Assembly (NCBI GenBank): GCA_964481235.1 | Contig: CAYZYH010000004.1 | Span: forward strand, 2,124-66,123 | Source: an uncultured Candidatus Saccharibacteria bacterium | GTDB lineage: Bacteria; Patescibacteriota; Saccharimonadia; CAILAD01; BJGX01 | Length of the DNA: 64,000 nucleotides | Reading direction: 5' to 3' | In this document: positions 4,059 to 22,446 of the stretch, one piece after another | Numbering within the stretch: the first letter of the stretch is position 1 | Layout: every line of letters begins with the position of its first letter | Notes under the pieces: generated by a model | What the model saw: the letters and a program-made list of their open reading frames with translations, nothing else | Databases searched by the model: none | What the model was told of the DNA's origin: nothing | Program-made: the position numbers and the translations under genes

Positions 4059-4918
4059 GATTTGTATATACTAAAAAAACCATCCAATCTCTTAATAGTA
4101 TTGGAGCAGACCCGCAACATGCCTACCTATTACACGGGTCTAGGGGATCGGGTAAATATCTTGCTTCACTAGACTTGGCAGCCAAAATAATTGGCGATGA
4201 AAAAATAACAAGCATAGAAAACTTTGCCCATCCCAACCTCTTTGTTATTAGACCACTAGCTAACAAAAATAATATCACTATTGCTCAAATTAGAGAATTA
4301 AATGATAATATGTGGCGAACAGCTAGTGGAGAGAATGCCTACAAAGTAATAATAATAGTTGGCGCAAATAAACTAACAACAGAAGCTGCCAATGCCTTGC
4401 TAAAAAACCTAGAAGAAAGTCCTAAGAATACGGTCTTTATACTTATTACTAATATGTTATCTCAGGTATTACCAACCATCCGATCAAGATCACAGCTAGT
4501 TTTTTTTGAGCCAATACCGTTAGATCTAGCAACTGAATTTTTGAATAAGCAATTAAATATAAATAAAGAAGACACCAAAAGCTTAATGAAACTAGCCCAT
4601 GGTTCTTTAGGAAAAGCAATTGAACTAATAGATATAGAAAAAAAAGAACATACACTTAGAGTTCATAAATACGCCGAGGACTTTTTAAGCGGTAATATCA
4701 CTAAGCGATTTCTGATTGCTAAAAATATATACAATGACGATTCTATTAAAGACTTCCTCGATGAGCTCATCTATGAAATTAGAGATAAATCTACTATACT
4801 AGGTGGTGTAATGAGTCTGGAGATAATAATGAAAACTGTTGATCAGCTCCAATCAAATATTAATAACCGAACAGTCTTAGAGAACCTAGGACTGCAGCTT
4901 AATGTAGTACAGGAATAG
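4055..4918 (+). CDS. holB: DNA polymerase III delta' subunit
   Basis: AAA+ clamp-loader N-terminus (LLHGSRGSGKYLASLDLAAKI) and …TIRSRSQLVFF sensor motif. Confidence 0.7.
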   Translation: MRFVYTKKTIQSLNSIGADPQHAYLLHGSRGSGKYLASLDLAAKIIGDEKITSIENFAHPNLFVIRPLANKNNITIAQIRELNDNMWRTASGENAYKVIIIVGANKLTTEAANALLKNLEESPKNTVFILITNMLSQVLPTIRSRSQLVFFEPIPLDLATEFLNKQLNINKEDTKSLMKLAHGSLGKAIELIDIEKKEHTLRVHKYAEDFLSGNITKRFLIAKNIYNDDSIKDFLDELIYEIRDKSTILGGVMSLEIIMKTVDQLQSNINNRTVLENLGLQLNVVQE

Positions 4919-6078: not shown

Positions 6079-6339
6079 TTGATTCGGCTAATAATCAAGC
6101 AGGACAATATGGCGCACAAATTAAAAAAATCAAAATCAGAAATAAGTTTGTCAAAAAAAGATAGTAAATTTCTCGGCGTAGCCGGAGGAATAGCTGATTA
6201 TTACAAACAAGATCCAGCCTGGGTGAGAGTAGGAGCTGTGGTCTTAATTATTCTTACTGGTATTCTACCAGGTTTATTAATTTATTCGGTTTTCTATTTA
6301 CTTATGAGAAATACTAGCGAGGATAAGAAAACCAAGTGA
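6079..6339 (+). CDS. PspC-domain membrane protein
   Basis: …FLGVAGGIADYYKQDPAWVRVGAVVLIILTGILPGLLIYSVFYLLM is a PspC-domain signature. True start may be the internal Met at about 6109. Confidence 0.55.
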   Translation: MIRLIIKQDNMAHKLKKSKSEISLSKKDSKFLGVAGGIADYYKQDPAWVRVGAVVLIILTGILPGLLIYSVFYLLMRNTSEDKKTK

Positions 6340-7634
6340 AGAAGTTGAATATTTTGGTTATAGGTTCTGGTGGTAGAGAACACGCACTTGCGTGGAAACT
6401 TGCGCAATCACCACGGTTAGAGAAACTATATGTTGCACCAGGCAATGGCGGTACTACTAGTCTTGCCACCAACCTTGCTCTTGATATCACTGACCACCAA
6501 GAAGTGATGCGGGCCTGTAAAGACAATAGTATCGACTTGGTCTTGATTGGCCCAGACGATGCTTTGGCTGCTGGTCTAGCAGATGACTTACAGTCTGCTG
6601 GTATCGCAGCATTTGGGCCAAGTAAGCTAGCTGCAAGAATAGAAGCCTCTAAGTCTTTTGCCAAAGATGTGATGAAAAGTGCTGGTGTACATACGGCTAA
6701 CTATCAAGAATTCACCGACTACACAAAAGCACTTGATTATATAAATAGTATTAAACCACCAATTGTTATAAAAGCCGATGGGTTAGCACTAGGCAAAGGT
6801 GTAATAATAGCTCAAGACCACAAAGAAGCGCAAGATGCCCTCAAAAGTATGATGCAAGAAGAAGCATTTGGTGAGTCTGGTCACAAAGTAGTTATAGAAG
6901 AATACTTGAAGGGTAGCGAGATAAGCACCCACGCCTTTTGTGATGGCAAAAATTACGTGATGTTCCCAAGTTCTCAAGACCATAAACCAATAGGCGAAGG
7001 CGATACTGGCCCCAACACCGGCGGCATGGGAACTATCGCGCCGGTACCATGGATAAGTCAAATATATATAGATAAATTGGGTGAACAACTAGTTAAGCCA
7101 GTTTTAGAGAAGTTGAAGGATCGAGGCATTCAGTATAGTGGCTTGCTTTACCCGGGCTTGATGCTCTCAGACGATAATTATAATGTTATAGAGTACAATG
7201 CGCGTTTTGGTGACCCAGAAACCCAAAGCTATATGCGTCTTTTTAAAAGTGATCTACTAGAAATATTATTGGCTTGCGCCAGAGGCGATTTGACTAAGCA
7301 AAATATTGAGTGGTCTGGTGGATATGCCTGCTGCATTGTGTTGGCATCTGGTGGATACCCGGGTGGTTACAACAAAGGTGAAGTGATAAGTGGTATTGAA
7401 GAGGCTGAAAAACTAGATGATATCGTCATCTTTCATGCTGGTACCAAACAAGATAGAAAAGACTTAGTCACCAGTGGTGGTAGAGTGCTCAATGTGACAG
7501 CCACTGGCAAGACTTTAGATGAGGCACTTGGTAAGGCGTACCGGGCTGTTAAAAAGATTCACTTCAAAGGTATGCAGTACCGCACCGATATTGGTAGGCG
7601 ACCAGTGCCAAATTGGATTAAAAAGCCAAAATAA
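6336..7634 (+). CDS. purD: Phosphoribosylamine--glycine ligase
   Basis: MKKLNILVIGSGGREHALAWKLAQSPRLEKLYVAPGNGGT… plus an ATP-grasp core. Full length, about 432 aa. Confidence 0.85.
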   Translation: MKKLNILVIGSGGREHALAWKLAQSPRLEKLYVAPGNGGTTSLATNLALDITDHQEVMRACKDNSIDLVLIGPDDALAAGLADDLQSAGIAAFGPSKLAARIEASKSFAKDVMKSAGVHTANYQEFTDYTKALDYINSIKPPIVIKADGLALGKGVIIAQDHKEAQDALKSMMQEEAFGESGHKVVIEEYLKGSEISTHAFCDGKNYVMFPSSQDHKPIGEGDTGPNTGGMGTIAPVPWISQIYIDKLGEQLVKPVLEKLKDRGIQYSGLLYPGLMLSDDNYNVIEYNARFGDPETQSYMRLFKSDLLEILLACARGDLTKQNIEWSGGYACCIVLASGGYPGGYNKGEVISGIEEAEKLDDIVIFHAGTKQDRKDLVTSGGRVLNVTATGKTLDEALGKAYRAVKKIHFKGMQYRTDIGRRPVPNWIKKPK

Positions 7635-7675
7635 GCTAAAATATATCTGTGAAGTAGATATTAACTGTCTTCTTA

Positions 7676-7712
7676 CGATTGAATAAACCGAAACAAAATT
7701 GTTTATTCAATC
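7676..7712. repeat. Perfect 13-bp inverted repeat (cgattgaataaac…gtttattcaatcg) in the purD/tRNA-Trp intergenic region
   Basis: Seen directly in the sequence. 11-nt spacer, no T-tract. Possible regulatory hairpin or purD terminator. Confidence 0.4.
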
Positions 7713-7790
7713 GAGAGGAGAAAGTGGTGTTCTAACTGAAGACGAATACTCATTTAGTGTTCGTCGAAAGCCTAAGCGCACTTTTGACGA

Positions 7791-7867
7791 AGGGGTGTAG
7801 CTCAGTTGGCTAGAGCGTTGGTCTCCAAAACCAAAGGCCGCGGGTTCGACTCCTGCCACCCCTGCCA
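7791..7867 (+). tRNA. tRNA-Trp (anticodon CCA)
   Basis: Acceptor AGGGGTG/CACCCCT. D-arm GCTCAGTTGGCTAGAGC. Anticodon stem TTGGT/ACCAA with loop CTCCAAA. T-arm GCGGG-TTCGACT-CCTGC. Encoded CCA. Confidence 0.8.
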
Positions 7868-9349
7868 AATTTTTGAATCAGGCTCATTTTGAGCCTTTTT
7901 GTTTTGTTCAGATAGCTCTCTAAAGGGGTTGTTGAGCACATAAGACAACTTTTTGTTGTTTAGTTCAACGTTCGAAATCATGTAACTCAGTAACTTCTGT
8001 CTAAGCTCGTTATTCGAACATCGAAACAGTTCTTCGGCTCGCTGTGCTAAGTCCAACAGGTATGAGGCGGTGACCTGGAAGCTCTTATTGTCTTTTGTAA
8101 GTTTCTTAAGTCTATCATTCAATATCTGCTGCTTGCCCTCTAGCTCATTTGCGATTTCGTCATGAAACTGCAGAGTAATACGCCTTTCTATACGGTCGTA
8201 ATAGAGTGTCTTCATTTTATCGTTGATGGCATCATATTCTTTGCGAGCTTGCTCAATGCTCTGCGTATAAAAGAGTTGCTGGTTTTCATGTCTATCTTTT
8301 AACATCGATATTACTTTTTCAACTATCTTCTCGGGCACACGTATGTTTGAAAGCTCCTTGTAAATATCGTGTAGAAGTAATGACTCTGCCGTGTTTGGAT
8401 TGCCGCAACTATGCTGACCTGTGCCGCTGCAACGTAGATATACCTGCTTACGACCGTAGTATGACGACACAGCACGCCCACAATTACCGCACTTTACTAT
8501 CTTTTTGAACGTGAACCAATGTGAATTATGTTTTGTACGGTCGTTACTTCGCTGCTCTTTTACCTCTTGGCATTTATTAAACAGCTCTCGGCTAATAAGT
8601 GGCTCATATTTGTGAGGGTAGCTTTTGGCTGCGTGAACCATGACGCCGTAGTAAAAGGTGTTATTTATTATTCGCTCCAAGTATGACTTGCCAACGGGTT
8701 TGTTGGATTTGACGGTGCCAGTAAAGCCATCTTTTCCGAGCTGAATTGCAATTGCGTCGTATGACATTCCCGTAGAACGTAGTTCAAAGGCTTTGATAAT
8801 AAACTTTGCTCTTACAGTATCAGGCTCTAGAGTAAACGTCTTATCATCTATTCGTCTTGTAATATAACCGATTGGGGGTCTGTGCACCCATATACCATCG
8901 CTAAGCATTTGCTCAAACCGACGCTTTACATTATCACTAATCGAGTCCGAATAGTATTTGGCCAAAGCCATACCAATACCAAGCCTAAACCAGTCTGCGG
9001 CAGAGGAATGCTGGGTTATTACTAGAGCGTCATGCGGGAAGTGAAGCTCGATTTTCCCTTGCTTTACTAACAACTGAAGTGCTTTTACTTCATCTTGGCT
9101 ACTATCTCTTGTGTAGCGGTCTATTTTATCGAACACAACCCAACAAGGGGCTTTCAAGTTTGTTATGTGCTCGACTAAAGCTGCGAACTTTTGTCTTTCT
9201 TCTTTGTGGGCACTTTCATCAAATTCGTGATATTCGTAATCTAGTTTATTTTCATCGGCATAATTAACTAGCCGACGTTTCTGAGCAGGCAAAGCTTGCC
9301 GCTGTTCTTCGTCTGATACTCTCGCAATTAGTATTAGTTTAGTTTCCAT
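7802..9349 (-). CDS. Large serine recombinase (phage-integrase type). Its 3' end overlaps tRNA-Trp in antisense
   Basis: N-terminal resolvase catalytic domain (KLILIARVSDEEQRQALPAQKRRL). Central recombinase domain. Zinc-ribbon CGNCGRAVSSYYGRKQVYLRCSG…HSCGN. The last 22 codons (…WQESNPRPLVLETNALAN) are the antisense of the tRNA-Trp 3' half. Confidence 0.8.
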   Translation of the reverse strand: METKLILIARVSDEEQRQALPAQKRRLVNYADENKLDYEYHEFDESAHKEERQKFAALVEHITNLKAPCWVVFDKIDRYTRDSSQDEVKALQLLVKQGKIELHFPHDALVITQHSSAADWFRLGIGMALAKYYSDSISDNVKRRFEQMLSDGIWVHRPPIGYITRRIDDKTFTLEPDTVRAKFIIKAFELRSTGMSYDAIAIQLGKDGFTGTVKSNKPVGKSYLERIINNTFYYGVMVHAAKSYPHKYEPLISRELFNKCQEVKEQRSNDRTKHNSHWFTFKKIVKCGNCGRAVSSYYGRKQVYLRCSGTGQHSCGNPNTAESLLLHDIYKELSNIRVPEKIVEKVISMLKDRHENQQLFYTQSIEQARKEYDAINDKMKTLYYDRIERRITLQFHDEIANELEGKQQILNDRLKKLTKDNKSFQVTASYLLDLAQRAEELFRCSNNELRQKLLSYMISNVELNNKKLSYVLNNPFRELSEQNKKAQNEPDSKIWQGWQESNPRPLVLETNALAN

Positions 9350-9378
9350 ATTCTTCCTTTCTAACTTACCATTAGTTA

Positions 9379-10521
9379 CTAGTTATTTGCAATGTTTGTT
9401 TTGAAGTATTCGAAATTTGTAGGTGTAAAGTGCTCTAAGGCTTCATCAATATGCACAAAAGCTTGTAGCCTATTGTGGTTGGGTTCTTTGAATATCGGCT
9501 TTAGACGGTACCAGGCAGCTTGTCCGTAGCGACCCTGAATAGTATCTCGAAGAGCAGTGATACTTTCTTGTCCATTGATTAGCAAGCCAGCAACGGCTGC
9601 TAGAGCTGCTTGAGGCGTTGCCTCATAATTATCTTCTATGTAGTTTTGAAGTAGCCCGTATGGTCTGCTTACGTCCAATGCCAGCATATCGATTGACTGG
9701 GTTATTTTCTGCCAATGCTTGATCAATACTTCTTGGCACAAATTAGCTTTGAATAACGATTCTAAATTAGTGTCTTCTAAGTTTGGATAGGCACGCTTTA
9801 TGGCCTGTCGGCCTACAAACCGCACTTCATAGCGAAATACTTCTAACGGCTTGTATTCATCCAACATTTCAAGCAGGTTCATTTGCATTCGGCCACTGTC
9901 TTCAAATGCTCTCTTGTCGCTAACCTTAGCTTTTCTTAGGTCGGCCATCTTGTCGTAAAACGCTATGTCTAGTGAATTACAGTGTACGTGCAGCACATGC
10001 CCGTCTCTAAAGTTTGTTCTTTGCAAATCATATATGCGACTAAAATCAAGCTTACCTAGTGTATTTAAAATTGTCTGACAGCCTGTATAGTCTAAGAAGA
10101 CGATATTCTTTGAGGGGTGCCATGCACCAACATCTGCCTTTGCCAGCTGCCACTTAAAGAATTTGTAATTCAGTAGCTCGTTAAGCTTGCTCTGCAAGGC
10201 GGTAACTATCTGTTCAAAATCTGTATCGACTAGTTCATCAAAGTTGTTTCCAAGCAACAGCTTTGGAGCCGAAAACTCAACCGCAAGCTGGTAAACAATG
10301 CCTTGCTTAGATGGCCGTTTAAAAAAGGTTAAACGGGGCATGTATTTACCAATCTTCTCATAAGTTGGCGTTGGGTTTAAGTATGTTCTGCCTGGGCTTC
10401 TGCTTTCAACCAGCTTTTCAATTGTGATTGGTGTAAACAGGCTCCCATCTAAAATACTCGGGTCATTTATTTTGATGAGTAATTTTACCGTGTCTACCAT
10501 TTTGTTCATCACTTTTTTCAA
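9379..10521 (-). CDS. Hypothetical protein of the integrated element, possibly a replication-initiation (Rep_trans-like) protein
   Basis: 380-aa ORF immediately downstream of the recombinase. Position and size fit mobile-element replication proteins. Family assignment is from memory only. Confidence 0.3.
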   Translation of the reverse strand: MKKVMNKMVDTVKLLIKINDPSILDGSLFTPITIEKLVESRSPGRTYLNPTPTYEKIGKYMPRLTFFKRPSKQGIVYQLAVEFSAPKLLLGNNFDELVDTDFEQIVTALQSKLNELLNYKFFKWQLAKADVGAWHPSKNIVFLDYTGCQTILNTLGKLDFSRIYDLQRTNFRDGHVLHVHCNSLDIAFYDKMADLRKAKVSDKRAFEDSGRMQMNLLEMLDEYKPLEVFRYEVRFVGRQAIKRAYPNLEDTNLESLFKANLCQEVLIKHWQKITQSIDMLALDVSRPYGLLQNYIEDNYEATPQAALAAVAGLLINGQESITALRDTIQGRYGQAAWYRLKPIFKEPNHNRLQAFVHIDEALEHFTPTNFEYFKTNIANN

Positions 10522-10774
10522 AAATTTCTTGGCACTTCTTTGTTATTGTTTGCTCAATGAGCTTGCCAGCCTCTTTGCTTATAGGGTAGTAGTAGTTGAG
10601 TTGCCGACTGCCTAGTAGCTTCGTCGGGTAAGTTATACGGTAGCCCGAACCATCTATGAGTTGATGGATTCCTAGTGAGCCAATATACAGACTTTTATCA
10701 ACTACACAACTAGCAAAGCCAACAAGACCATTTGTAGGCTTCACGGGTATGATTTGTACTTCACTTATCTTCAT
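10463..10774 (-). CDS. spoVG: SpoVG-family nucleic-acid-binding protein
   Basis: MKISEVQIIPVKPTNGLVGFASCVVDKSLYIGSLGIHQLIDGSGYRITYPTKLLGSRQ…YPISKEAGKLIEQTI aligns position-by-position with the SpoVG consensus (M.VTDVR…G.…AS…D…I…DG..G…P.….…P…….I…). Confidence 0.6.
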   Translation of the reverse strand: MKISEVQIIPVKPTNGLVGFASCVVDKSLYIGSLGIHQLIDGSGYRITYPTKLLGSRQLNYYYPISKEAGKLIEQTITKKCQEIFEKSDEQNGRHGKITHQNK

Positions 10775-10943
10775 TGTTTTTCCTTTTCTTCTTTACATCT
10801 TTCTGCTCAAGGTCCATTTGAATGAGTATGTCGAAGAAACCAGCAAGACTCTTTATGGCCTCGTCATCCATAGCAGCAACCAAGCCATTTTTTGCGGCTT
10901 TTGTATTTGGCTTTACTGCTGGTGATTTTTTCTTGTTAGACAT
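10761..10943 (-). CDS. Small basic/acidic hypothetical protein (60 aa)
   Basis: ORF only. Co-oriented with the flanking element genes. Confidence 0.3.
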   Translation of the reverse strand: MSNKKKSPAVKPNTKAAKNGLVAAMDDEAIKSLAGFFDILIQMDLEQKDVKKKRKNNEDK

Positions 10944-11035
10944 AAAAATAGCCTCTGTTTTGAGACTATCTGTTTGTGCTTGGGTTTTCGTTGTAGCAGG
11001 GCTACTTGGGCATCAAAAGGTATATAAGGGCTGGT

Positions 11036-11743
11036 CTACTTAAAATCCAAGTACTTTATTGCTATTTCATTTAAGTCGGATTTACTAACGGGGTTCTTAA
11101 ACCGAACACTACTCTTAGAAACATCGAAAAATACAGCTTTCAGTTGGGTTGTAAATCCAAGGTTCTCTATTACTTTGTGTATAGTTTTCTTTAGCACGAC
11201 ACCCTCTGCCTTAAGATCTTTCGTGTCAATACGCTTATTGGGGTTGGCATACACATAAGTAAAGAATCTCTCATTCTCACTATCAAAGTCTGGCTTTTTT
11301 AGTAAAAAGTTATTTATTGTTATCTCTCGAGATTTTTCTGAGTATCTAATCTCATAAACAGGGTCGCTTATCTCGGTTTCTGGAAGATTTGTTTTTTTGT
11401 AATCTCTTGCAGCGTTTTTATATTGCCCCTCATACATCCTAAAAACCACCTTATACTGAGGCCCGACTTTAAAAAATAAAAATCCATTCATTCCAGTTTT
11501 ATGGTCCAGGTCGGTTAGTGCATTCAGGTAAACGAGCCTATTAACAATCGCCGTTCTCTGTCTAGCGACCTCGTCAAATTCTAACTTCGAACCATAGAAA
11601 TTTGGCGGTCTGAAAGTTAGCTTGATGTAGTCCTCAGGGCTAGAAAGCTGTCTAGTTTCTTCGATTTCCTGGAGTACATTCCAGATTTTTTCTAAAGCCT
11701 TTCGAGAATACTTTGGAATCTTTTTAGTCATCACTTCACTCAT
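11036..11743 (-). CDS. Hypothetical protein (235 aa) of the integrated element
   Basis: Intact ORF with no recognisable motifs. Divergent from the excisionase-like gene. Confidence 0.4.
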   Translation of the reverse strand: MSEVMTKKIPKYSRKALEKIWNVLQEIEETRQLSSPEDYIKLTFRPPNFYGSKLEFDEVARQRTAIVNRLVYLNALTDLDHKTGMNGFLFFKVGPQYKVVFRMYEGQYKNAARDYKKTNLPETEISDPVYEIRYSEKSREITINNFLLKKPDFDSENERFFTYVYANPNKRIDTKDLKAEGVVLKKTIHKVIENLGFTTQLKAVFFDVSKSSVRFKNPVSKSDLNEIAIKYLDFK

Positions 11744-11762
11744 TTCCTAAAAATAGTAACTA

Positions 11763-11975
11763 ATGTATAGTAATAGTATGACACAACCAGGTACAGTCGA
11801 AAAGAAGAAGCCTAGATTACTTACCCTTAAGCAAGCAAGTGAAATGCTCAATTGTCATCCAAACACTTTGCGTGCCTGGGATGCAAAAGGCTATCTTGTA
11901 GCCGTTCGCTTTGGCACACGCAAGGACAGGCGTTATAAACGAGAAGACATTACTAAGCTGCTGGAAAAGAGATGA
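11763..11975 (+). CDS. Excisionase-family (MerR-like) helix-turn-helix DNA-binding protein, candidate recombination directionality factor
   Basis: …LLTLKQASEMLNCHPNTLRAWDAKGYLVAVRFGTRKDRRYKREDI… is an excisionase-family HTH signature. 70 aa. Confidence 0.55.
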   Translation: MYSNSMTQPGTVEKKKPRLLTLKQASEMLNCHPNTLRAWDAKGYLVAVRFGTRKDRRYKREDITKLLEKR

Positions 11976-12011
11976 AAGCATTTTTAGCTTAGTAACTTAT
12001 CTGATACTTAT

Positions 12012-12833
12012 ATGCAAAAATCATCTAAGAAACAGCCAGTCCACAAAAAACCTCTACTAATTGCTTCAATTTTTGTTGGATCAGTAATTTTGTTACTTTG
12101 CTTAGCTGCGGCTGTGGTCTATTTCGTTTCGCCCAAGGTTATTAGGCAGCCCCAATCAGAGCACTATCATTTTAGAATGCGAATTTTGGTCGATGGCAAA
12201 GCCGAAAACTTTTCAGAGCAGAAATATCAAACTGGTTATTCAAAAGACCTTTGCAACGCCAGCCTTACTGAGCAACCAATTCATTTCCACGACAACAAAG
12301 ATCAGTTTACGCACATTCACTGGGAAGGCATGACGGGCGGAATGGTGCTTAAATATTATGGCTGGAACTTTATTGGCGGACTGCCCAATATGCTGGGCTA
12401 CAAGCTAGATAATCTGCGTGACATTCAGCCAGTAACTACGCATGGCAATTATCTTCCAGTCATACCAAAAGATGCCAAATTTTACATTTACATTGGTGAA
12501 GAAAACAATTATCGCCAAGTTAGTTTTAATGACTGGGTAAACAAAGACTTAGAAGAAGTTTTTGACAAAGAAAGTAACTTTCCAGCTCATGAGAAAAACA
12601 AACAGTCTAGCTTGATTAACTCTTTCGTGCCTAAAGCTTTGGCACATGGAGGTGAAGCTGACGGAGCTGATGGCGAACCAGGCGAAGAAACACCGCAAGA
12701 AAAACTAACCAGAATAAACAATCTTATCGGCAATGTAGTAATCTTTGTGCAAAAAGACCCGCCCAGCGAGCAGCAAATAAAAGAACAGTTTCAGAAACTT
12801 GAACCACTATCGGAGAGCACATGCGGCGGTTAA
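12012..12833 (+). CDS. Membrane-anchored hypothetical protein (273 aa)
   Basis: N-terminal signal-anchor helix. Extracytoplasmic body with an acidic low-complexity stretch (GGEADGADGEPGEE). Confidence 0.4.
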   Translation: MQKSSKKQPVHKKPLLIASIFVGSVILLLCLAAAVVYFVSPKVIRQPQSEHYHFRMRILVDGKAENFSEQKYQTGYSKDLCNASLTEQPIHFHDNKDQFTHIHWEGMTGGMVLKYYGWNFIGGLPNMLGYKLDNLRDIQPVTTHGNYLPVIPKDAKFYIYIGEENNYRQVSFNDWVNKDLEEVFDKESNFPAHEKNKQSSLINSFVPKALAHGGEADGADGEPGEETPQEKLTRINNLIGNVVIFVQKDPPSEQQIKEQFQKLEPLSESTCGG

Positions 12834-13180
12834 CAGCAACCACTCTGAAAGTGGCTGTATTCTTTAGTATGAGTATATGCTTATTGCTACTCACTTACGT
12901 TTCGATTATTCCTCATAACAAGAATTATGTTGCAAACGCTGGGGCAAATCGTTCGCAGACTAGCTGTGATAATTGTACAGGCCATGCCCAACAAACCGTT
13001 CTGTATACCTTCAACCAAACAAAGCGTGTCGTGCGGTTGCAACCATTGCTACCGCCAATCCCATATTGGTTGCAAGCTCAATTGCCACTTTGGCTTTTAT
13101 ATGTGTTTCCGTTTTTAGCTATTGTTGCGATTGGCTATAGCCAAACCAGAATACTACTCAGTGTTCAGCTTAGATATTGA
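12821..13180 (+). CDS. Hypothetical membrane protein (119 aa)
   Basis: ORF with an N-terminal TM helix and Cys-rich segment. Overlaps the previous gene by 13 nt. Confidence 0.3.
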   Translation: MRRLTATTLKVAVFFSMSICLLLLTYVSIIPHNKNYVANAGANRSQTSCDNCTGHAQQTVLYTFNQTKRVVRLQPLLPPIPYWLQAQLPLWLLYVFPFLAIVAIGYSQTRILLSVQLRY

Positions 13181-13212
13181 AATCCCCATAGTTCACTTTT
13201 TAGATTAACTAA

Positions 13213-13896
13213 ATGGGGAGTTTTGTAATGTTTTTTAAGAAATATTTTAAGGTAATTTTAGGAGTCGTTGTCGTAGTTGGGATAGTGGGCTTTATCGGCT
13301 ACGCTCTGACACGTCCAGAACAAGCACCACAATCACAAACTGAGTCTGGCCCAGTTGGACCAAATGGCTCGAATAATGTCTATGGCAAAGCCGACAGCCC
13401 AGTACAGTTGACGGAGTATGTCGATTTTCAGTGTGAGGCTTGCTACTCATACTATCCAATCGTAAAGGAAGTAAAAGAAAAGTACAAAGACAAGGTAAAG
13501 TTTCAAATCAAGAATTTTCCTATAAGTAGTGCACACAAAAATTCCCTGCAAGCTGCTCAGGCAGCTCAGGCCGCAGCTAAGCAAGGTAAGTTTTTTGAGA
13601 TGCACAACCTTCTGTTTGAAAAGCAAAAAGACTGGGAAACCGACACCAATTTCCGACCAACTCTGGACAAATATGCGAAACAGATCGGTCTGAATATGGG
13701 TCAATTCGATAAAGACTTTAGTAGTGACGAAACCAAGGGGATAATCAACTTTGACCTGCAAGAAGTCACTAAGCTTGGTGGCAAGGGAACGCCTACTTTT
13801 GTGCTCAACGGCACGATGATTGAAAATCCTGGCCCAAGCGTTGAAGCACTTTCGAAACTACTCGATGCAGAACTACAGAAAGCAGGTATTCAGTAG
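13213..13896 (+). CDS. DsbA-family thiol:disulfide oxidoreductase
   Basis: Signal-anchor. Thioredoxin-fold CxxC active site (YVDFQCEACYSYYP) and a DsbA-like helical insert. Confidence 0.75.
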   Translation: MGSFVMFFKKYFKVILGVVVVVGIVGFIGYALTRPEQAPQSQTESGPVGPNGSNNVYGKADSPVQLTEYVDFQCEACYSYYPIVKEVKEKYKDKVKFQIKNFPISSAHKNSLQAAQAAQAAAKQGKFFEMHNLLFEKQKDWETDTNFRPTLDKYAKQIGLNMGQFDKDFSSDETKGIINFDLQEVTKLGGKGTPTFVLNGTMIENPGPSVEALSKLLDAELQKAGIQ

Positions 13897-13919
13897 CAGT
13901 ACGGTGATACAATAAGTCT

Positions 13920-14804
13920 ATGAGTCATCAACACGACACTGATTCGAATAGCCACTTTGGTATTGGGTTAATCCTCAATACTGGCTTTACTGTGTTTGAA
14001 ATGACGGTTGGAGTTTTGAGCGGCAGTTTGGCACTAGTAGCCGATGCCGCTCATAACCTAACCGATAGCTTAACGCTGGCGATCGCCTATGCTGCCGAGC
14101 GAATAAGCCGTCGTCAGCCCGATATTAAGCGTACCTATGGATATGGGCGGGTAAAAATAATCGCTGCTCTGCTCAATTCAGGTATTTTGATGGCTATCGC
14201 TACCTTCATAACAATTGAAGCTATCCAGCGTCTGTCGGAGCCTAAAGAGGTACCTGGCTTAACAATTGCAGTCGTGGCTACGATTGGCATTGCTATTAAT
14301 GGTGGGGTTGCGTATCTGCTCAGCAAACGTAAGCATGATCTAAATACCAAAGCTGCCTATACAAACATGCTTTATGATACGCTCAGCTCGGTTGGAGCAC
14401 TGGTTGCTGGATTGGCGATATACTTTTTCCATATATACTGGCTCGATAGTGTGGTTGGTCTGGCTATCGCTTTCATGCTTCTTATTGCTACCCTGGGCAT
14501 AGTCAAAGAAGTATTCCAGGTACTGCTAGAAGGAGTGCCAAAGGGAGTTGACCTGCAAAAATTACGCCAAGAACTGCTCAGTATAAAGGGTGTTAAATCT
14601 ATTGACGACGTGCACGCTTGGGCGATCGATAACGATAACTACGCCTTTAGCTGTCACATCGCTGTCGAAGAAAAAAACTTAAGTGACAGTCGTAAAATCG
14701 TTGAATCCGCTAAAGAATTACTAGATAAGGATTTTGGATTTGGGCACTCAACCATTGAGGTTGAACTAGACGGCTGCCAGCCCGAAGAGCACGGACACGC
14801 ATAA
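13920..14804 (+). CDS. Cation diffusion facilitator (CzcD-like Co/Zn/Cd efflux) transporter
   Basis: Six TM helices and a C-terminal cytoplasmic domain, including …HNLTDSLTLAIAYAAERISRRQPDIKRTYGYGRVKIIAALLN…. Confidence 0.8.
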   Translation: MSHQHDTDSNSHFGIGLILNTGFTVFEMTVGVLSGSLALVADAAHNLTDSLTLAIAYAAERISRRQPDIKRTYGYGRVKIIAALLNSGILMAIATFITIEAIQRLSEPKEVPGLTIAVVATIGIAINGGVAYLLSKRKHDLNTKAAYTNMLYDTLSSVGALVAGLAIYFFHIYWLDSVVGLAIAFMLLIATLGIVKEVFQVLLEGVPKGVDLQKLRQELLSIKGVKSIDDVHAWAIDNDNYAFSCHIAVEEKNLSDSRKIVESAKELLDKDFGFGHSTIEVELDGCQPEEHGHA

Positions 14805-14810
14805 TAAGTT

Positions 14811-15596
14811 ATGTTAGATGCTCTTATATTGGGAATTGTTGAGGGTTTTACAGAGTTTCTGCCCATTTCATCTACTGGACACCTAATATTAGTTGGTAAT
14901 CTACTAGGCTTTACTGGTGAAAAGGCTGCTACATTCGAGGTGTTTATACAGCTTGGAGCAATTCTGGCCGTTTTGGTTCTTTACCAAAGGCGGTTTACAG
15001 GCTTATTCAGCACCGAAACTAAAGGATTGGCTGGCATCAGAGGGTTAAAACTGCTAGCTATTACTACTGTTCCAGCAGTGATTGCGGGTTTTCTGCTTCA
15101 TGGAATTATTAAGGCAAAACTCTTTAATCCATTCACTGTAGCAATTGGCTTGCTAGTTGGCGGTGTTATTATCATTGTCGTTGAGCGTTGGCATAAGCCA
15201 ACCGAGGGCGTTGAGATTGATGACATATCTGAAAAGCAGGCTTTAAAAGTAGGACTGTTTCAATTACTTGCTTTGTGGCCTGGTTTTTCTAGAGCAGGGG
15301 CAACTATTATTGGTGGTAGACTAGTAGGTTTAAGTGACAAAGCCGCTGTAGAGTATTCATTCTTGGCTGCGGTACCACTCATGATAGCTGCCGTTGGGTA
15401 TGACTTGGTAAAAAGTATTCCTGCTCTTTCAACTAATGATATTGGCATTTTCTTTGTTGGTTTCGTAGCCGCTTTCCTCTCGGCTTTGGTGGCAATAAAG
15501 TTTCTGGTTGCAATTGTATCTCGCTATAGTCTGGCACCGTTCGGCTGGTATCGTATTGAGTTGGCTCTAATGATCTTTTTAGTGCTAGCTCTTTAG
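14811..15596 (+). CDS. uppP: Undecaprenyl-diphosphatase (BacA/UppP)
   Basis: MLDALILGIVEGFTEFLPISSTGHLILV… and …FSRAGATIIGGRLVGLSDKAAVEYSFLAAVPLM are UppP signatures. Confidence 0.85.
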   Translation: MLDALILGIVEGFTEFLPISSTGHLILVGNLLGFTGEKAATFEVFIQLGAILAVLVLYQRRFTGLFSTETKGLAGIRGLKLLAITTVPAVIAGFLLHGIIKAKLFNPFTVAIGLLVGGVIIIVVERWHKPTEGVEIDDISEKQALKVGLFQLLALWPGFSRAGATIIGGRLVGLSDKAAVEYSFLAAVPLMIAAVGYDLVKSIPALSTNDIGIFFVGFVAAFLSALVAIKFLVAIVSRYSLAPFGWYRIELALMIFLVLAL

Positions 15597-15801
15597 CAAT
15601 AAACCAAGCAAGCTAAAATGAATATGTAAGATGTCAGGTAAGCTACTAGACAGCTAGCAATTCACCTGATAGCTCAAATGTATCAACCAAAGATTTTAGG
15701 TTATAATCTTCATTAGAGGTAATTGCTGCCGTTTGTAATGCGTCAGCGATGCCCTGCCAAAGTACTTATGCTTAATTCACATAAATTACCACCCAGGAAA
15801 T

Positions 15802-16185
15802 ATGAAAACAATATTAGTAGATGCAATAAATGGTTTAGTCCTTGAAGATGGTAGTATTCTTGAGCCAATGCACAAACTACTTGAAAGTTATCCAAATAAC
15901 AAACTGGTATTGACAGGTGCAAATGATGAACAGTACAAGAAGTTCAAACTTGACCAAGTACCGTACGAAGTTTTTACCCTAAAACATGACCCCGAAAAAA
16001 CTGATCCAGTGTATTTCAAGATACTACTTGAAAAGTACGGACTTAAACCCGATGATGTTGTTTATTTTGAGCACAACGCAGAAGCGGCTAAGACAGCTAA
16101 ATCCGTTGGCATTACCACATTCTACTACGACCACACCAAAGAAGATATGGATACACTAAAGCAATTCTTGGATGAAAACCTATGA
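15802..16185 (+). CDS. Small HAD-like hydrolase-fold protein (degenerate), putative
   Basis: MKTILVDAINGLV… and C-terminal …VVYFEHNAEAAKTAKSVGITTFYY resemble HAD motifs I and III/IV, but the DxD is not canonical. Confidence 0.3.
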   Translation: MKTILVDAINGLVLEDGSILEPMHKLLESYPNNKLVLTGANDEQYKKFKLDQVPYEVFTLKHDPEKTDPVYFKILLEKYGLKPDDVVYFEHNAEAAKTAKSVGITTFYYDHTKEDMDTLKQFLDENL

Positions 16186-16250
16186 TGGTTGTTGTTTGAT
16201 AATTAAGTTACCATTTTAGCTTACTAACCCCTGCCACAAGTTGTTTTTAA

Positions 16251-16275
16251 AAAGACACGAAAGTGTCTTTTTTTG
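16251..16275 (+). terminator. Intrinsic terminator (aaagacac-gaaa-gtgtcttt + T7)
   Basis: Perfect 8-bp stem plus a T-run, seen directly. Confidence 0.6.
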
Positions 16276-17255: not shown

Positions 17256-19028
17256 ATGGATAAAACAAATCAATCCCCCAAATCTTCAGATGTAGTTGAT
17301 CAAAACACCACTACAGATGAAAGTAGTAAGAAGCCAAAAGTTACTGCTTCTCAAGGTGTAACTATTGAAGAAGCCCAGAACTCTAGAATTAATACGGCTA
17401 AACGTATTAAAGAGGCTATGCTTAGTCAAAACAAAATTTCTCAAAAACAGCTAGACGCCATAGAGCATATTACTAAGCTACACAACATTAACTTTATAGA
17501 TTATTTAATATCACAAAATATTGTCAATAAAGACTTTATTGGTCAAACCCTAGCCAACTATTACAATACCTCATACATAGATCTAGAAAACAATCAGCCT
17601 CCAAAAGACCTAGTACTTAAGATACCCAAGAATGTAACTACTGAGAACCGAGTAATATTTTATTATGTAGACAAAACAAGAGCTGTGTTTGTTACCGACG
17701 AGCCAGGCCAGGTAGGGCTGAAAGAAAAACTAGCTATCTACACCAATGGTCTACCTGTATCTATTGCATACTCTCTAAGTGACGATATTGACGTTATTCT
17801 GGCTCACTATCGCAAGCCGCTAGCTACGCGATTTAACCAAATTATTCAAGAGCAGGAACGTGTTGCGCCAGAAATAATAGATGAAATTATCAAAGATGCT
17901 ATCGTGTTTGATGTGAGTGATATTCATTTTGAACCAGAAGAGAAAGTAGTTTTAATAAGGTTCCGAATAGATGGTGTATTGCGTGAGGCTGGTCAGATAC
18001 CTATTCAGTATTATGAGAATGTACTTAATAGGTTAAAGGTGCAAGCGAGAATGCGCATAGACGAACATGGCGCTAGCCAAGATGGCGCCATACGCTATAG
18101 CGTAGATGAAGAATCTGTAGATATTCGTATTTCTATTGTCCCAACACTTAACGGAGAGAAGGTTGCTCTAAGACTGCTCGCTGGCAACTCAAAGAACCTC
18201 AACTTCAAAAACCTCGGTTTTAATGTCTTTGATCTCAAGTTGATTGAAGCACAAATGCATCGGCCATTCGGTATGATAGTTACCACTGGACCAACTGGTT
18301 CGGGTAAAACCACTACACTTTATGCTATGCTAAAGCAGCTAAATAGCTCAGATATTAATATTACCACCATAGAGGATCCTGTAGAATACAAACTTTTTGG
18401 TGTAAATCAAATACAGGTAAACCGGGCTACTAATCTTACTTTTGCCGAAGGGTTAAGAACTATTGTCCGACAAGACCCAGATATCATTTTGGTAGGTGAA
18501 ATTCGTGACAAAGAGACGGCCAAAATGGCTGTAAACGCTGCGCTAACAGGCCACCTACTATTCTCTACCTTTCACGCCAACGACTCTGCCACGGCTATTC
18601 CTCGCTTTATAGACATGGGGGTAGAGCCTTTCTTGCTTTCATCTACTCTAAACGCCGTAATTGCTCAACGCTTAATGCGAACAATTTGTGTTACTTGTAG
18701 AAAGAGTTACTTGGTAAATCTTAGTGATATACAAAAAAAGATTCCTCATGCTGAAATGTATTTCAAAAGACCTCAAGTTACACTTTACTATGGCGAAGGC
18801 TGTGAATCTTGTAATTACTCGGGCTATAAGGGTAGGGTAGCATTATACGAAATACTAGTGGTATCACCAGCAATTAAAGAGCTTATAGTTAAAAATCCAT
18901 CCAGCAAATTAATATGGGATCAAGCCAGAAAAGAAGGTGCTCGTACGCTATTTGAAGACGGTATAATAAAAATACAAAATGGTCGATCGACCCTAGAGGA
19001 GTTAATGCGTGTCGCCGAACCAAAATAA
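17256..19028 (+). CDS. pilB: Type IV pilus assembly ATPase (GspE/PilB family)
   Basis: Walker A TGPTGSGKTT. Asp and His boxes. CxxC…CxxC tetracysteine (CVTCRKSY…CESCNYSGY). Confidence 0.85.
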   Translation: MDKTNQSPKSSDVVDQNTTTDESSKKPKVTASQGVTIEEAQNSRINTAKRIKEAMLSQNKISQKQLDAIEHITKLHNINFIDYLISQNIVNKDFIGQTLANYYNTSYIDLENNQPPKDLVLKIPKNVTTENRVIFYYVDKTRAVFVTDEPGQVGLKEKLAIYTNGLPVSIAYSLSDDIDVILAHYRKPLATRFNQIIQEQERVAPEIIDEIIKDAIVFDVSDIHFEPEEKVVLIRFRIDGVLREAGQIPIQYYENVLNRLKVQARMRIDEHGASQDGAIRYSVDEESVDIRISIVPTLNGEKVALRLLAGNSKNLNFKNLGFNVFDLKLIEAQMHRPFGMIVTTGPTGSGKTTTLYAMLKQLNSSDINITTIEDPVEYKLFGVNQIQVNRATNLTFAEGLRTIVRQDPDIILVGEIRDKETAKMAVNAALTGHLLFSTFHANDSATAIPRFIDMGVEPFLLSSTLNAVIAQRLMRTICVTCRKSYLVNLSDIQKKIPHAEMYFKRPQVTLYYGEGCESCNYSGYKGRVALYEILVVSPAIKELIVKNPSSKLIWDQARKEGARTLFEDGIIKIQNGRSTLEELMRVAEPK

Positions 19029-20196
19029 TCCTGTAAAAATAGACGGTGTGAGCAACGATAGGTCATCTAAAGATGCCCCCAAAGTTACTGTAGAAAAAAA
19101 ACCGGCTGAAGATGTAGAGAAAAAAACTAAATCCAAACCGCTTACCAAGCACGCTGTTAGTAGAGATGCTCGAGAGTATTTTACTGAGACATTAAGCATG
19201 CTAATTTCTACCGGTGTGACTGTGGGTCTCTCACTTGAAATACTCAGTAAAGAAGCACCTACCAAAAAAGTTAAAGCTGCAATACTTGCTATGCGTGACA
19301 AAGTTGACGAGGGCGGTACACTTTGGCGGGCTATAGGTGAGTCGGGTATGTTAAATGCCTCTTCAGTTGCGTTAATAAGGGCTGGCGAAGAATCTGGGCG
19401 ACTATCTGAAAACCTAAAGGTTGTTTCTGAGCAAACCCATAGAATTAACATGATCAACTCTAAGGTTCGCTCAGCACTTATTTATCCTACATTTCTTGTG
19501 GTGTTGATGTTAATTGTTGGTAGCGGCATAAGCTTATTTCTGTTACCAAGATTAGCAGAAATATTCGAAGGCTTAGATGTAGAATTAAACTTACTTACAA
19601 AAGTAATGATTGGCTTTGGGTTGTTTTGGTCGCACTGGGGCCTACTATTGTCGGGTATTTTTGTGGTTGCGGTTTTTATTATTGGTATGGGCATCGCTTA
19701 TGTAAAGCCTATCAGAACTCTAGCAGAGAAAGTACTCTATGTTATACCTGGTATAAAAACTCTCATTTATCAGTCCGAAATCTCTAGGTTTGGATTTATA
19801 ATGGGCTCACTATTAGAGGCAGGCCTACCAATTGTAGATGTGCTCGACTCTCTTGTAGATTCTTTTGCTACAGTCAGGTATAGCAATATTGCAAAAATTA
19901 TAAGAACGAACGTAGAAGAAGGTCAGTCTTTGGCGACTACTCTAGAGAAGATTCCAGATAGAAAAGCTTTGCCTGGCCCCATAAGACAGCTTATAGTAAG
20001 TTCTGAACAGTCGGGCAACCTTTCTGATACATTACTTAAAATTAGCAGTACCTATGAAGAAAAGGTTGAGATAACAGCCGAGAACCTTGAAACTGTACTA
20101 GAGCCTATTATCTTAATTGCAATAGCGGTAGGAGTACTCTTTATTGCCTTATCGGTAATATTGCCCATTTATGGCTTGCTCGGAGGAATTAAGTAA
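19009..20196 (+). CDS. pilC: Type IV pilus inner-membrane platform protein (GspF/PilC family)
   Basis: Two T2SS-F repeats and 3 TM segments. Translationally coupled to pilB. Confidence 0.8.
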   Translation: MSPNQNNPVKIDGVSNDRSSKDAPKVTVEKKPAEDVEKKTKSKPLTKHAVSRDAREYFTETLSMLISTGVTVGLSLEILSKEAPTKKVKAAILAMRDKVDEGGTLWRAIGESGMLNASSVALIRAGEESGRLSENLKVVSEQTHRINMINSKVRSALIYPTFLVVLMLIVGSGISLFLLPRLAEIFEGLDVELNLLTKVMIGFGLFWSHWGLLLSGIFVVAVFIIGMGIAYVKPIRTLAEKVLYVIPGIKTLIYQSEISRFGFIMGSLLEAGLPIVDVLDSLVDSFATVRYSNIAKIIRTNVEEGQSLATTLEKIPDRKALPGPIRQLIVSSEQSGNLSDTLLKISSTYEEKVEITAENLETVLEPIILIAIAVGVLFIALSVILPIYGLLGGIK

Positions 20197-20201
20197 TTAA
20201 T

Positions 20202-22434: not shown

Positions 22435-22446
22435 GGGCAATTAATT

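Follow-up and report, generated by a model that had tools for sequence, protein, structure and literature searches.

Large serine integrases of phages such as phiC31, Bxb1, and A118/LI use an attP site that lies between genes and an attB site that is mostly within a protein-coding gene. In mycobacteria, tRNA attB sites have been reported for tyrosine integrases only (PMC10654092). A few AICEs employ a serine recombinase at a tRNA gene, those of Mycobacterium residing at tRNA-Leu, in agreement with the remark in a preliminary description of the present locus that such pairings are rare (PMC3218068). AICEs (pSAM2-type and Mycobacterium) are small elements that integrate where a tRNA gene ends and bring together an integrase, an xis-like gene, and a replication initiator, which for pSAM2 and its group is of rolling-circle type (PMC3218068). 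The Ralstonia filamentous phages phiRSM1 and phiRSM3 are likewise small circular replicons with a serine recombinase and a short core at a tRNA 3' end, i.e., 13 bp of tRNA-Ser (PMC4471427). In the "type I" or "suicidal" archaeal integrases of SSV1, pTN3, and pT26-2, attP lies in the integrase ORF and is translated as part of it. When the element enters a tRNA gene, one portion of the integrase gene goes to each of its ends; an undivided copy occurs only in the free form or at tandem junctions, and relics pile up at the site (PMC7253208, PMC8371274). A review describes integrase-splitting integration as "so far restricted to archaea" (PMC7253208), and our literature search found no description of an attP-inside-gene, split layout for a serine integrase.

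We analyzed a 64,000-nt window from an uncultured Candidatus Saccharibacteria bacterium. Its positions 7868-15759 are very probably a plasmid-like circular element of 7,892 bp in its integrated state, one that splits its own integrase gene upon insertion. The chromosomal target (attB), which forms the left junction, is a tRNA-Trp gene with anticodon CCA and an encoded CCA end (7791-7867, + strand; ARAGORN; Rfam, 70.9 bits). On the opposite strand, a 515-aa ORF (7802-9349) encodes the integrated form of a large serine recombinase matching Pfam Resolvase (7e-15), Recombinase (4e-12), and Zn_ribbon_recom (7e-6), as well as the PHROG integrase family (7e-61), bearing out the catalytic domain and C-terminal zinc ribbon proposed previously. 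It has the catalytic Ser, recombinase domain, zinc ribbon with inserted coiled coil, and short att core of the phage integrases, and S12, C287, C290, C307, C315, and W495 are invariant among 58 integrase homologs. The antisense overlap with the tRNA had been noticed before but was placed in its 3' half; it actually spans 66 of the 77 tRNA bases (7802-7867). The element accounts for codons 1-494 (7868-9349), the next three (W-Q-G) are the att core, and the final 18 are antisense tRNA read-through. The ORF runs into the tRNA because attP sits within the integrase gene. The site falls on codon W495, where TGG reads as the CCA of the tRNA on the opposite strand, and the 18 codons beyond the core are an incidental by-product.

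The core, CCCTGCCA, consists of the last 8 nt of tRNA-Trp, CCA included, and is common to attL (7860-7867, + strand), attR (15752-15759, + strand), attP of the circular contig L169, and attB of the empty site in L003. At attL it comprises the acceptor 3' strand, discriminator, and CCA of the tRNA, its antisense being codons W495-Q496-G497. Thus, the element does share the tRNA 3' end, as had been suggested, but to the extent of just these 8 bases. The 10-mer ACCCCTGCCA has two exact occurrences in the window (at 7858 and 16227; chance expectation, 0.07), and the 8-mer at 15752 marks the true right end. An element at this locus had been recognized with an end at 12000, about half of the actual span; the right boundary at 15759, the 3.8 kb of cargo that it adds, the attP-in-gene cause of the overlap, and the family-wide occurrence of the layout were absent from that account. 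Recombination of the circle's core with the tRNA core inserted the circle at the tRNA 3' end and left the tRNA sequence unaltered, with crossover presumably inside the core and the large serine recombinase as the likely catalyst of both integration and excision. Inspection of attP identified neither dyad symmetry nor a crossover dinucleotide.

Comparison with related genomes, which the preliminary description had proposed as a search for an empty site, yielded one in L003 (~86% nucleotide identity), where the homolog of window position 16237 onward directly follows a tRNA-Trp 100% identical to that of the window. Between the element and position 16237 lies a 477-bp segment (15760-16236, + strand) that carries a 127-aa gene with HAD matches (15802-16185), terminates in ACCCCTGCCA (16227-16236), which repeats the end of the tRNA, and is missing from L003, from the circles, and from L167. 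A previous insertion at this site left it behind as a relic or small cassette. An analogous segment with a NUDIX gene was seen in L001.

The element was also recovered from two circular metagenome contigs, L169 (7,947 bp, 55-bp terminal overlap) and L170 (7,922 bp, 30-bp terminal overlap), each giving a 7,892-bp circle that closes at CCCTGCCA and is 99.95-100% identical to window 7860-15761. In addition, copies at least 99.9% identical occupy other chromosomal contexts (L162-L167), with distinct flanks in L163/L164, L162/L165, and L167. The copies in L162, L163, L165, and L166 and the circle L169 have one set of three differences from the window in common and no others, and the host flanks of L163 are merely 74-86% identical to the window. 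Near-identical copies in differing host backgrounds indicate recent transfer. The empty site, the circles, and these multiple contexts refute a fixed chromosomal island in which the ORF merely lacks a stop codon by chance; despite the absence of a GC shift across the region and the incidental nature of the read-through codons, this reading has practically no probability, since the same geometry recurs at 55 loci and four tRNA species. The claim of a mobile integrative element with a large serine recombinase at tRNA-Trp is upheld on the same evidence.

That a free circle exists is strongly suggested, although head-to-tail tandems in the chromosome can also give circular contigs. Such a tandem copy is present in L092, and tandem arrays occur in L162 and L093; these would fit a circle that exists only briefly as an intermediate or that arises in assembly. 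However, terminal overlaps were found on four contigs from different members and samples (L169, L170, L152, and L145), and the gene order of L150 wraps around its contig ends. The same alternative would assign a role other than replication to p380, the product of the 380-aa ORF next to the integrase (9379-10521, - strand; start probably at 10500, giving 373 aa). Indeed, p380 of the window has no direct match in Pfam, NCBIfam, or PHROG, nor to any replication family. Against this, it is the most constant of all integrase-linked genes (61 of 81 related loci, the set over which all linkage counts were taken), PF05144 (Phage_CRI) is matched by 17 of 73 divergent family members (best, 1.2e-8), and Foldseek against BFVD matched its predicted fold to Inoviridae G2P, with low TM-scores (0.41-0.48). 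We consider this alternative unlikely. The earlier label "Rep-like" is supported through this remote G2P homology and not through Rep_trans. We regard p380 as a putative rolling-circle initiator that would replicate the circle. The family shares an invariant Y182-D-K and several equally invariant acidic positions; the window p380 has G at a nearly invariant E, so this copy may be impaired.

A 103-aa SpoVG-like protein (10463-10774, - strand) belongs to the conserved core module and is kept beside p380 in 55/81 loci; the homology named previously does appear as a match to PF04026, but below threshold (22.4 vs. 29.6 bits). The two hypotheticals noted on the integrase strand are present: a 60-aa protein (10761-10943), likewise of the core module and found at the same position in 36/81 loci by tblastn, has no family match, and a 235-aa protein (11036-11743), occupying a variable position within that module and common to only 4/81 loci, has no credible one. 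Divergent from this operon, as reported before, is a gene for a 70-aa HTH_17/MerR-type DNA-binding protein (11763-11975, + strand; PF12728, 39.3 bits, above cut-off), present in 47/81 loci at 49-85% identity. Its description as Xis-like holds at the domain level only (TIGR01764 "excise", 28.3 bits; cut-off, 28.8), and the protein may serve the module as a regulator or directionality factor.

The cargo, all on the + strand, begins with two ORFs without family matches that also lie inside the circular form: a 273-aa protein with an N-terminal hydrophobic stretch and His-rich motifs (12012-12833) and a 119-aa ORF (12821-13180). These are followed by a DsbA-like thioredoxin-fold protein (13213-13896; PF13462, 1e-29), a cation diffusion facilitator for metal efflux (13920-14804; PF01545, 1.5e-44, and ZT_dimer), and a BacA/UppP undecaprenyl-diphosphatase (14811-15596; PF02673, 3e-75), which in the circle immediately follows the full-length integrase. 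CDF cargo was also observed in L089 and L102. No transfer function was found among the genes of the element. Unlike AICEs, which carry an FtsK-like Tra for conjugation and other Rep families and for which a split integrase is not described (PMC3218068), the Saccharibacteria element yielded no such Tra.

Inoviruses such as phiRSM replicate via a G2P-type initiator. Considering the resemblance of p380 to that protein, the integration of phiRSM at a tRNA 3' end by means of a serine recombinase (PMC4471427), and a size of 7-11 kb that is compatible with an inovirus, a small prophage or phage satellite could be envisaged in place of a plasmid-like element. However, neither the window element nor circular L152 yielded a virion gene, be it for a Zot/pI-like ATPase, a coat protein, or another component, related elements have restriction-modification or envelope and metal cargo in their variable part, and the family had one distant match in IMG/VR and none in INPHARED (nor any in PLSDB). 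Moreover, phiRSM is a virion-forming inovirus with a small resolvase/invertase-type Int and attP between genes (PMC4471427), in contrast to the large serine recombinase and attP-in-gene of the present element. A phage origin is accordingly improbable.

Integration leaves 494 codons beside the tRNA and moves the rest of the integrase gene 7.9 kb away, where W-Q-G is followed by the 34-codon tail IADALQTAAITSNEDYNLKSLVDTFELSGELLAV and a stop (15646-15759, - strand). The integrated integrase sequence equals that of L169 up to the core, and in both L169 and L170 the frame is rejoined, with tail and body contiguous in a full 531-aa product. Body and tail are likewise joined in P0040, P0046, P0055, and P0064 and, with a more divergent tail, in circular L152 and in L150. 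Homologous detached tails, starting exactly at a core copy 6.6-11.3 kb away, were found at 18 loci besides the window. Conceivably, the split is functionally meaningless, with a dispensable tail conserved solely as integrase-binding P-arm DNA of attP. The first ~25 nt past the core double as the P arm, and synonymous divergence falls near the core (pS, 0.43 in the first 8 tail codons vs. 0.80), so that part of the tail's conservation is a DNA-level constraint. Furthermore, the split falls downstream of every one of the catalytic, recombinase, and zinc-ribbon/coiled-coil domains, and most integrated copies terminate one codon past the core. However, tail pN/pS is 0.45-0.57 and remains 0.45 in codons 12-35, which, at 33-105 nt from the core, exceed the usual arm length of a serine-integrase attP. 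AlphaFold predicted two helices in these codons (pLDDT, 71-80), and the motif DYKLKxLVExFxLS is kept across Trp- and Gly-targeting elements. A meaningless split is thus a possibility that we take seriously, but it is the less probable reading. If the tail is functional, its loss would alter integrase activity, and the integrated and free states would make different enzymes. Relative to phiC31, Bxb1, and A118/LI, the family's integrase possesses an extra C-terminal tail, of two predicted helices, that integration removes.

Insertion also separates the tRNA from its downstream sequence. A terminator-like hairpin (AGGCTCATTTTGAGCCT) with a T-run (7880-7906, + strand; hairpin scan) lies 13 nt past the tRNA end, within linker codons of the opposite-strand integrase. 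Such a hairpin and T-run were present in 40 of 47 distinct related loci vs. 3.3% of shuffles, and the stems vary in sequence between loci with pairing retained. This element-borne hairpin probably stands in for the tRNA's own terminator and would end tRNA transcription after insertion. The original is probably the hairpin GACAC-GAAA-GTGTC followed by T7 (16249-16274, + strand), today 8.4 kb from the tRNA, which aligns to the sequence directly after tRNA-Trp of L003; it was read by eye, the automated scan having left it unflagged.

An integrase 3' end overlapping an antisense tRNA was found at no fewer than 55 related loci in the metagenome sample (tRNA-Gly, 37; Asn, 14; Trp, 3; Ser, 1). The attP-in-integrase layout is therefore a trait of a large family and not an isolated case. 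The archaeal precedents are viruses and plasmids with tyrosine recombinases, and both of their integrase fragments are inactive pseudogenes (PMC7253208, PMC8371274), whereas here a large serine recombinase of a CPR bacterium loses just the last 34 of 531 residues and retains all recognized domains in one ORF. Thus, a bacterial large serine integrase has a layout that was previously reported just for unrelated archaeal integrases (PMC7253208).

The gene lying against tRNA-Trp(cca) (7791-7867, + strand; called by ARAGORN and Rfam) encodes a large serine recombinase with the catalytic, recombinase, four-cysteine zinc-ribbon and coiled-coil features of that class. In its integrated form the ORF comprises 515 aa (7802-9349, - strand) and matched the Pfam families Resolvase, Recombinase and Zn_ribbon_recom, as well as a PHROG integrase family (7e-61). 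The Pfam search placed a resolvase-type catalytic domain at residues 6-147 (PF00239, 7.4e-15), together with a recombinase domain (PF07508, 4e-12) and a zinc ribbon (PF13408, 6.8e-6; 26.8 bits vs. a cut-off of 25.3), bearing out the S-recombinase N-terminus and C-terminal zinc ribbon of the preliminary description. In an alignment of 58 integrase homologs, R10-V11-S12 and the zinc-ribbon cysteines C287, C290, C307 and C315 were invariant. The AlphaFold model of a full-length homolog, P0040 (mean pLDDT 81), showed the canonical large-serine-recombinase layout, with a coiled-coil insertion, formed by two long helices (341-388 and 394-445), that separates the zinc ribbon from closing strands 459-473, and then a linker helix (477-489). 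Domain searches of the integrase found serine-recombinase domains alone and no tyrosine-recombinase domain. Its homologs number in the hundreds, and their named source organisms are Saccharibacteria, Saccharimonadales or Patescibacteria. The ORF covers 66 of the 77 tRNA-Trp bases, and therefore extends beyond the 3' half of the tRNA to which the antisense overlap had been confined.

To delimit the element, species-representative genomes were scanned with the type IV pilus ATPase gene of the window (17256-19028), which recovered L003, a Saccharibacteria MAG of ~86% nucleotide identity to the window. There, a tRNA-Trp of identical sequence directly adjoins the homolog of window 16237 onward; thus, ~8.4 kb of the window is missing from L003. 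The last 10 nt of tRNA-Trp, ACCCCTGCCA, occur in the window solely at 7858 and 16227 (chance expectation, 0.07), and their final 8-mer, CCCTGCCA, has a third copy at 15752. This inner copy sits within a 56-nt stretch 96% identical to the element of L001, a genome that elsewhere shares only ~70-75% identity with the window. The outer 10-nt repeat (16227-16236) was rejected as the right end on the evidence of a detached integrase tail, of circular copies and of locus L167 (all described below), and the real end is the core at 15752-15759. A repeat search of 7000-14000 had found no repeat of the tRNA end, because the right end falls outside that span, and a composition profile showed no GC shift across the element. 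The empty tRNA-Trp site that was to be sought in related genomes therefore exists in L003, and the exact junction cores are located at the 8-bp CCCTGCCA.

Read in the tRNA sense, attP is GCGTCAGCGATG-CCCTGCCA-AATTTTTGAATCAGG (the bases immediately around the core being GCGATG-CCCTGCCA-AATTTTTG) and attB of L003 is CTCCTGCCAC-CCCTGCCA-GAAATTATTTTT. Identity between attP and attB was confined to 8 bp in Trp elements and to 6 bp in related elements at tRNA-Gly. The best dyad scores in attP were 0.36 for Gly-type and 0.43 for Trp-type sites (three sites only) vs. a random expectation of ~0.25, and neither dyad symmetry nor a crossover dinucleotide was identifiable in these sites. Large serine recombinases use short att sites of little identity with a 2-bp crossover, and they require a separate directionality factor for excision; we know of no signature common to directionality factors.

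When contigs encoding the element's 380-aa protein (p380) were looked up, two had terminal overlaps: L169 (7,947 bp, 55-bp overlap) and L170 (7,922 bp, 30-bp overlap). Both yield a 7,892-bp circle, the exact length of window 7868-15759, that joins at CCCTGCCA. Their identity to the window is 99.95-100%, and in each the gene for a 531-aa integrase precedes that for BacA. Circular contigs of the element, for whose excised form a test had been suggested, were thus recovered. Circular contigs can be derived from tandem copies instead of free circles, and a head-to-tail tandem was indeed present in L092, where 586 nt that match the integrase end exactly come after the tail (587) and the integrase gene is rejoined. 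No HTH gene was called in L168-L170; a mutated HTH gene in the circles was ruled out, since the sequences are identical there. The same element occupies tRNA-Trp in L163 and L164, where host flanks share no more than 74-86% identity with it. It stands in tandem in L162 and L165, behind a second element with a 570-aa serine recombinase, and in L167 it adjoins a carotenoid-synthesis-like gene, without the 477-bp HAD segment that follows it in the window. Five copies (L162, L163, L165, L166 and L169) share the same three differences from the window and have no others, so three substitutions are private to the window copy. Sequence comparison of these copies indicates that the element moved very recently between distinct lineages. 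This 7.9-kb integrative element, which carries a replication-initiator-like gene, has been mobile recently; an integrative element with a serine recombinase at tRNA-Trp, as first described, is real, and its organization goes beyond that description.

The conserved sequence of the integrase homologs ends at W-[Q/C]-G, and beyond it lies either a stop or differing tRNA-antisense peptides. W495 was invariant among the 58 integrases, and the TGG that encodes it is antisense to the tRNA CCA. Antisense from the inner core at 15759, the window reads W-Q-G-IADALQTAAITSNEDYNLKSLVDTFELSGELLAV and then a stop codon. Homologous tails (consensus W-x-x-[IV]-x-D-A-[LF]-Q-T ... D-Y-K-L-K-x-L-V-E-x-F-x-L-S) were found in 18 other integrated loci, each beginning exactly at a tRNA-end core copy that lies 6.6-11.3 kb away from the integrase. 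The tail is contiguous with the body of the enzyme in a minority of database proteins (P0040, P0046, P0055 and P0064), and a more divergent tail is contiguous with it in circular contig L152 and in L150. Since tails stand at distant core copies in some loci and are contiguous in other proteins, attP lies within the integrase ORF, and integration parts the last 34 codons from the first 494. Among the best 120 homolog clusters, 97 had the integrated-type end and 4 a contiguous tail; a search for further full-length integrases with a linker-plus-tail profile returned short fragments only. The tail forms two helices in the P0040 model (495-509 and 514-523), and the body ORF retains every recognised domain after integration (Pfam, AlphaFold). 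Across 20 diverged tails, pN/pS was 0.45 in codons 12-35 and 0.57 in codons 4-11, while synonymous divergence was 0.43 next to the core vs. 0.80, a pattern that fits DNA-level constraint by the attP arm plus protein-level constraint.

A metagenome scan with the 58-integrase alignment gave 79 loci, to which L001 and L002 were added. The integrase 3' end overlapped an antisense tRNA in 55 loci, namely Gly(gcc) in 37, Asn(gtt) in 14, Trp(cca) in 3 and Ser(gct) in 1; in a further 16 it was cut by the contig end, and among the remaining 10 some resemble tRNAs missed by ARAGORN and some are non-integrated forms. The core common to both junctions was 8 bp in Trp elements and 6 bp (GCACCA) in Gly elements. 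In this large Saccharibacteria family, the attachment site, at the CCA end of tRNA genes, falls within the serine integrase gene itself. Tails also stand in series downstream of one tRNA-Gly in L093 (at 229, 1081, 2500 and 3879) and in L120 (at 1141 and 3691), and such serial tail-plus-core remnants suggest repeated insertions and decay. Three loci (L129, ~8240-8330; L146, ~9830-9930; L153, ~11460-11520) have a tRNA-like sequence of the form TGGCTCC...GGxTCGAACC... past the integrase W, without an ARAGORN call. By analogy with the intron-containing tRNA-Asn and tRNA-Asp genes reported in Patescibacteria (PMC13011429), these may be intron-containing tRNA genes.

The integrase gene also overlaps a likely tRNA terminator. 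A 7-bp hairpin with a T-run lies on the tRNA strand at 7880-7906, 13 nt past the tRNA end and within the integrase linker codons K-K-A-Q-N-E-P. A hairpin with a T-run occurred at the equivalent place in 40 of 47 distinct related loci vs. 3.3% of shuffles, with stems that differ in sequence between loci and keep their pairing. A second hairpin and T-run at 16249-16274 is probably the original terminator of tRNA-Trp, and we infer that the element supplies a replacement.

Its putative replication gene, p380 (9379-10521, - strand), had no match in Pfam, PHROGs or NCBIfam, PF05144 included, and its family comprises 1,041 cluster representatives at E <= 0.001. Among divergent members, 17 of 73 matched Pfam Phage_CRI (PF05144; best 1.2e-8), which is the N-terminal domain of G2P; homology of p380 to G2P would therefore be transitive rather than direct. 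The predicted structure (pLDDT 82.8) had three strong matches among viral models (TM-scores 0.41-0.48), one to an Inoviridae G2P (E 6e-5) and two stronger ones to unnamed proteins (E 7.7e-9 and 4.3e-7). Residues Y182, D183, K184, D3, E89 and E225 were invariant in the 73 divergent members and are candidate equivalents of the G2P active site; H171-V-H173 was dropped as an HUH motif, since the histidines vary in the wider family. With moderate confidence, p380 is best read as a rolling-circle initiator, so that of the earlier "Rep-like" label a remote G2P/Phage_CRI relationship stands and a direct family match does not. At window 9656, in codon 289 of the 380-aa ORF, the window copy encodes G, in contrast to the E of 9 of 9 other element copies examined. 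In the family alignment this column (E282 in A3 numbering) is almost without variation, and p380 of the window copy may be impaired.

Of the other genes on the integrase strand, the 103-aa ORF matched PF04026 at 22.4 bits, under the gathering score of 29.6 (25.9 bits for its L152 homolog), and we retain the proposed SpoVG homolog as a SpoVG-like protein only; the 60-aa (p60) and 235-aa ORFs had no family match in Pfam, PHROGs or NCBIfam. The divergent 70-aa HTH_17/MerR gene (11763-11975, + strand) matched PF12728 at 39.3 bits (gathering score, 27), and TIGR01764 "excise" at 28.3 bits, just under the 28.8 cut-off. The domain of this supposed Xis is thereby established; an excisionase function, which its domain and position alone suggest, is not. 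HTH_17, p60 and the SpoVG-like protein are conserved integrase neighbours, and the module HTH_17(-) / p60 / SpoVG-like / p380 / Int was syntenic across the sampled loci. Cargo is variable, comprising DsbA-like, cation-efflux and BacA genes in the window, and methylase and ResIII-helicase pairs resembling type III restriction-modification systems in L001, L002 and L152. The cargo of these relatives (L001, 2424-7356; L002, 355-7260; L152, 4104-9946) is mostly defence-like, including N6_N4 methylase and ResIII helicase, SLFN/AlbA_2, SMC_N/AAA_21 and DUF4238 genes; in L089 and L102 a cation-efflux (CDF) gene stands beside the HTH gene, as in the window.

The family had one distant match in IMG/VR and none in INPHARED or PLSDB. 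An inovirus prophage would be expected to carry a pI/Zot morphogenesis ATPase and coat genes, but none was found in the window-element ORFs (Pfam, PHROGs) or in those of L152 (Pfam). On these grounds, we read the element as plasmid-like rather than viral. Unlike pSAM2-like AICEs, it has no FtsK/SpoIIIE-like Tra protein among its ORFs.

The surroundings of tRNA-Trp also vary. The 477-bp segment between the element end and the old flank (15760-16236) holds one HAD-like gene and ends in the second copy of the tRNA end; at the same place L001 has a 475-bp segment (1838-2312) with a NUDIX gene instead. The ends are conserved between the two: AAGTACTTATGCTTAATT follows the inner core, and the outer end reads GCYTACTA-NN-CCCTGCCA. 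The 477-bp segment could be what remains of an element of another type, or else a small cassette with a single gene that uses the same site. None of the loci fetched contained an exact match to the conserved cassette end (core plus AGTACTTATGC). The second element of L162 (12642-19764; also in L165) lies between tRNA-Trp and the 7.9-kb element. Its gene for the 570-aa serine recombinase extends into the tRNA, and its other genes include those for a Glucodextran_B-domain protein, several zinc-ribbon proteins and tRNA-Ile(tat). The neighbour of its far-end core reads WQGTIEEVRNAIILTKPQVLP* antisense, which could be the detached tail of that recombinase. Upstream of tRNA-Trp lie purD in the window (6336-7634), a gene for an unannotated 536-aa protein in L001 and ferric reductase and cytochrome b5 genes in L163; purD is unexpected in a lineage that is not known to make purines de novo. 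A type IV pilus-like cluster (17256-23000) begins a short way downstream of the integration hot spot; it comprises a T2SSE ATPase, a T2SSF platform protein and proteins whose N-termini carry a methylation motif. In L003, an ARAGORN "tRNA-Stop" call with anticodon TTA (4558-4629, - strand) is a candidate only.

Integration of serine recombinases into tRNA genes has been described as rare (PMC3218068); the cases known are phiRSM1, which uses tRNA-Ser, and eight Mycobacterium AICEs, which use tRNA-Leu (PMC3218068, PMC4471427), and in mycobacterial prophages tRNA attB sites were reported for tyrosine integrases alone (PMC10654092). An integrase gene that contains attP is what defines SSV-type "suicidal" tyrosine integrases, which are stated to be "so far restricted to archaea" (PMC7253208). 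The gene topology here is the same, with attP in the integrase ORF and the gene partitioned on integration. However, the enzyme is a serine recombinase from which only a C-terminal module is detached, and the Saccharibacteria element is not a member of that type. In SSV-type integrases both fragments are inactive after integration; the body ORF here retains all recognised domains and may or may not be active in the absence of its tail. We found no prior description of this layout or element family in the searched literature, whose coverage is incomplete, so that absence is unproven; on the mobile elements of CPR bacteria, Saccharibacteria included, we found almost nothing published.

We tentatively raise the possibility, which we regard as rather doubtful, that splitting of the integrase gene is a built-in directionality switch, the tailed and tail-less enzymes differing in activity. 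The 531-aa enzyme would be encoded solely by the free circle or a tandem junction, and its two-helix tail would be needed for integration or would bias the reaction towards it; the tail-less enzyme of the integrated copy would be prone to excision, or would stay silent pending the action of a partner, for example the HTH_17 protein. If this were true, the whole family would control integration vs. excision by its own gene topology, and a single DNA stretch would serve as coding sequence, attP arm and tRNA terminator. This would give the archaeal "suicidal" integrases a counterpart among bacterial serine recombinases, and Saccharibacteria a natural integration vector.

These findings extend the "attP inside the integrase gene" arrangement from archaeal tyrosine recombinases to a bacterial serine recombinase, and tRNA integration by serine recombinases, called rare, is the rule here, with at least 55 sampled loci and four tRNA species. 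Serine integrases are major genome-engineering tools and control of their directionality is actively studied; in this large natural family integration removes a conserved C-terminal module, and the 531-aa and tail-less proteins are directly comparable. With defined attP and attB, a candidate replicon and evidence of recent transfer between lineages, the element is a candidate shuttle or integration vector, and it gives restriction-modification, metal-efflux and envelope genes a way to spread between reduced CPR genomes.
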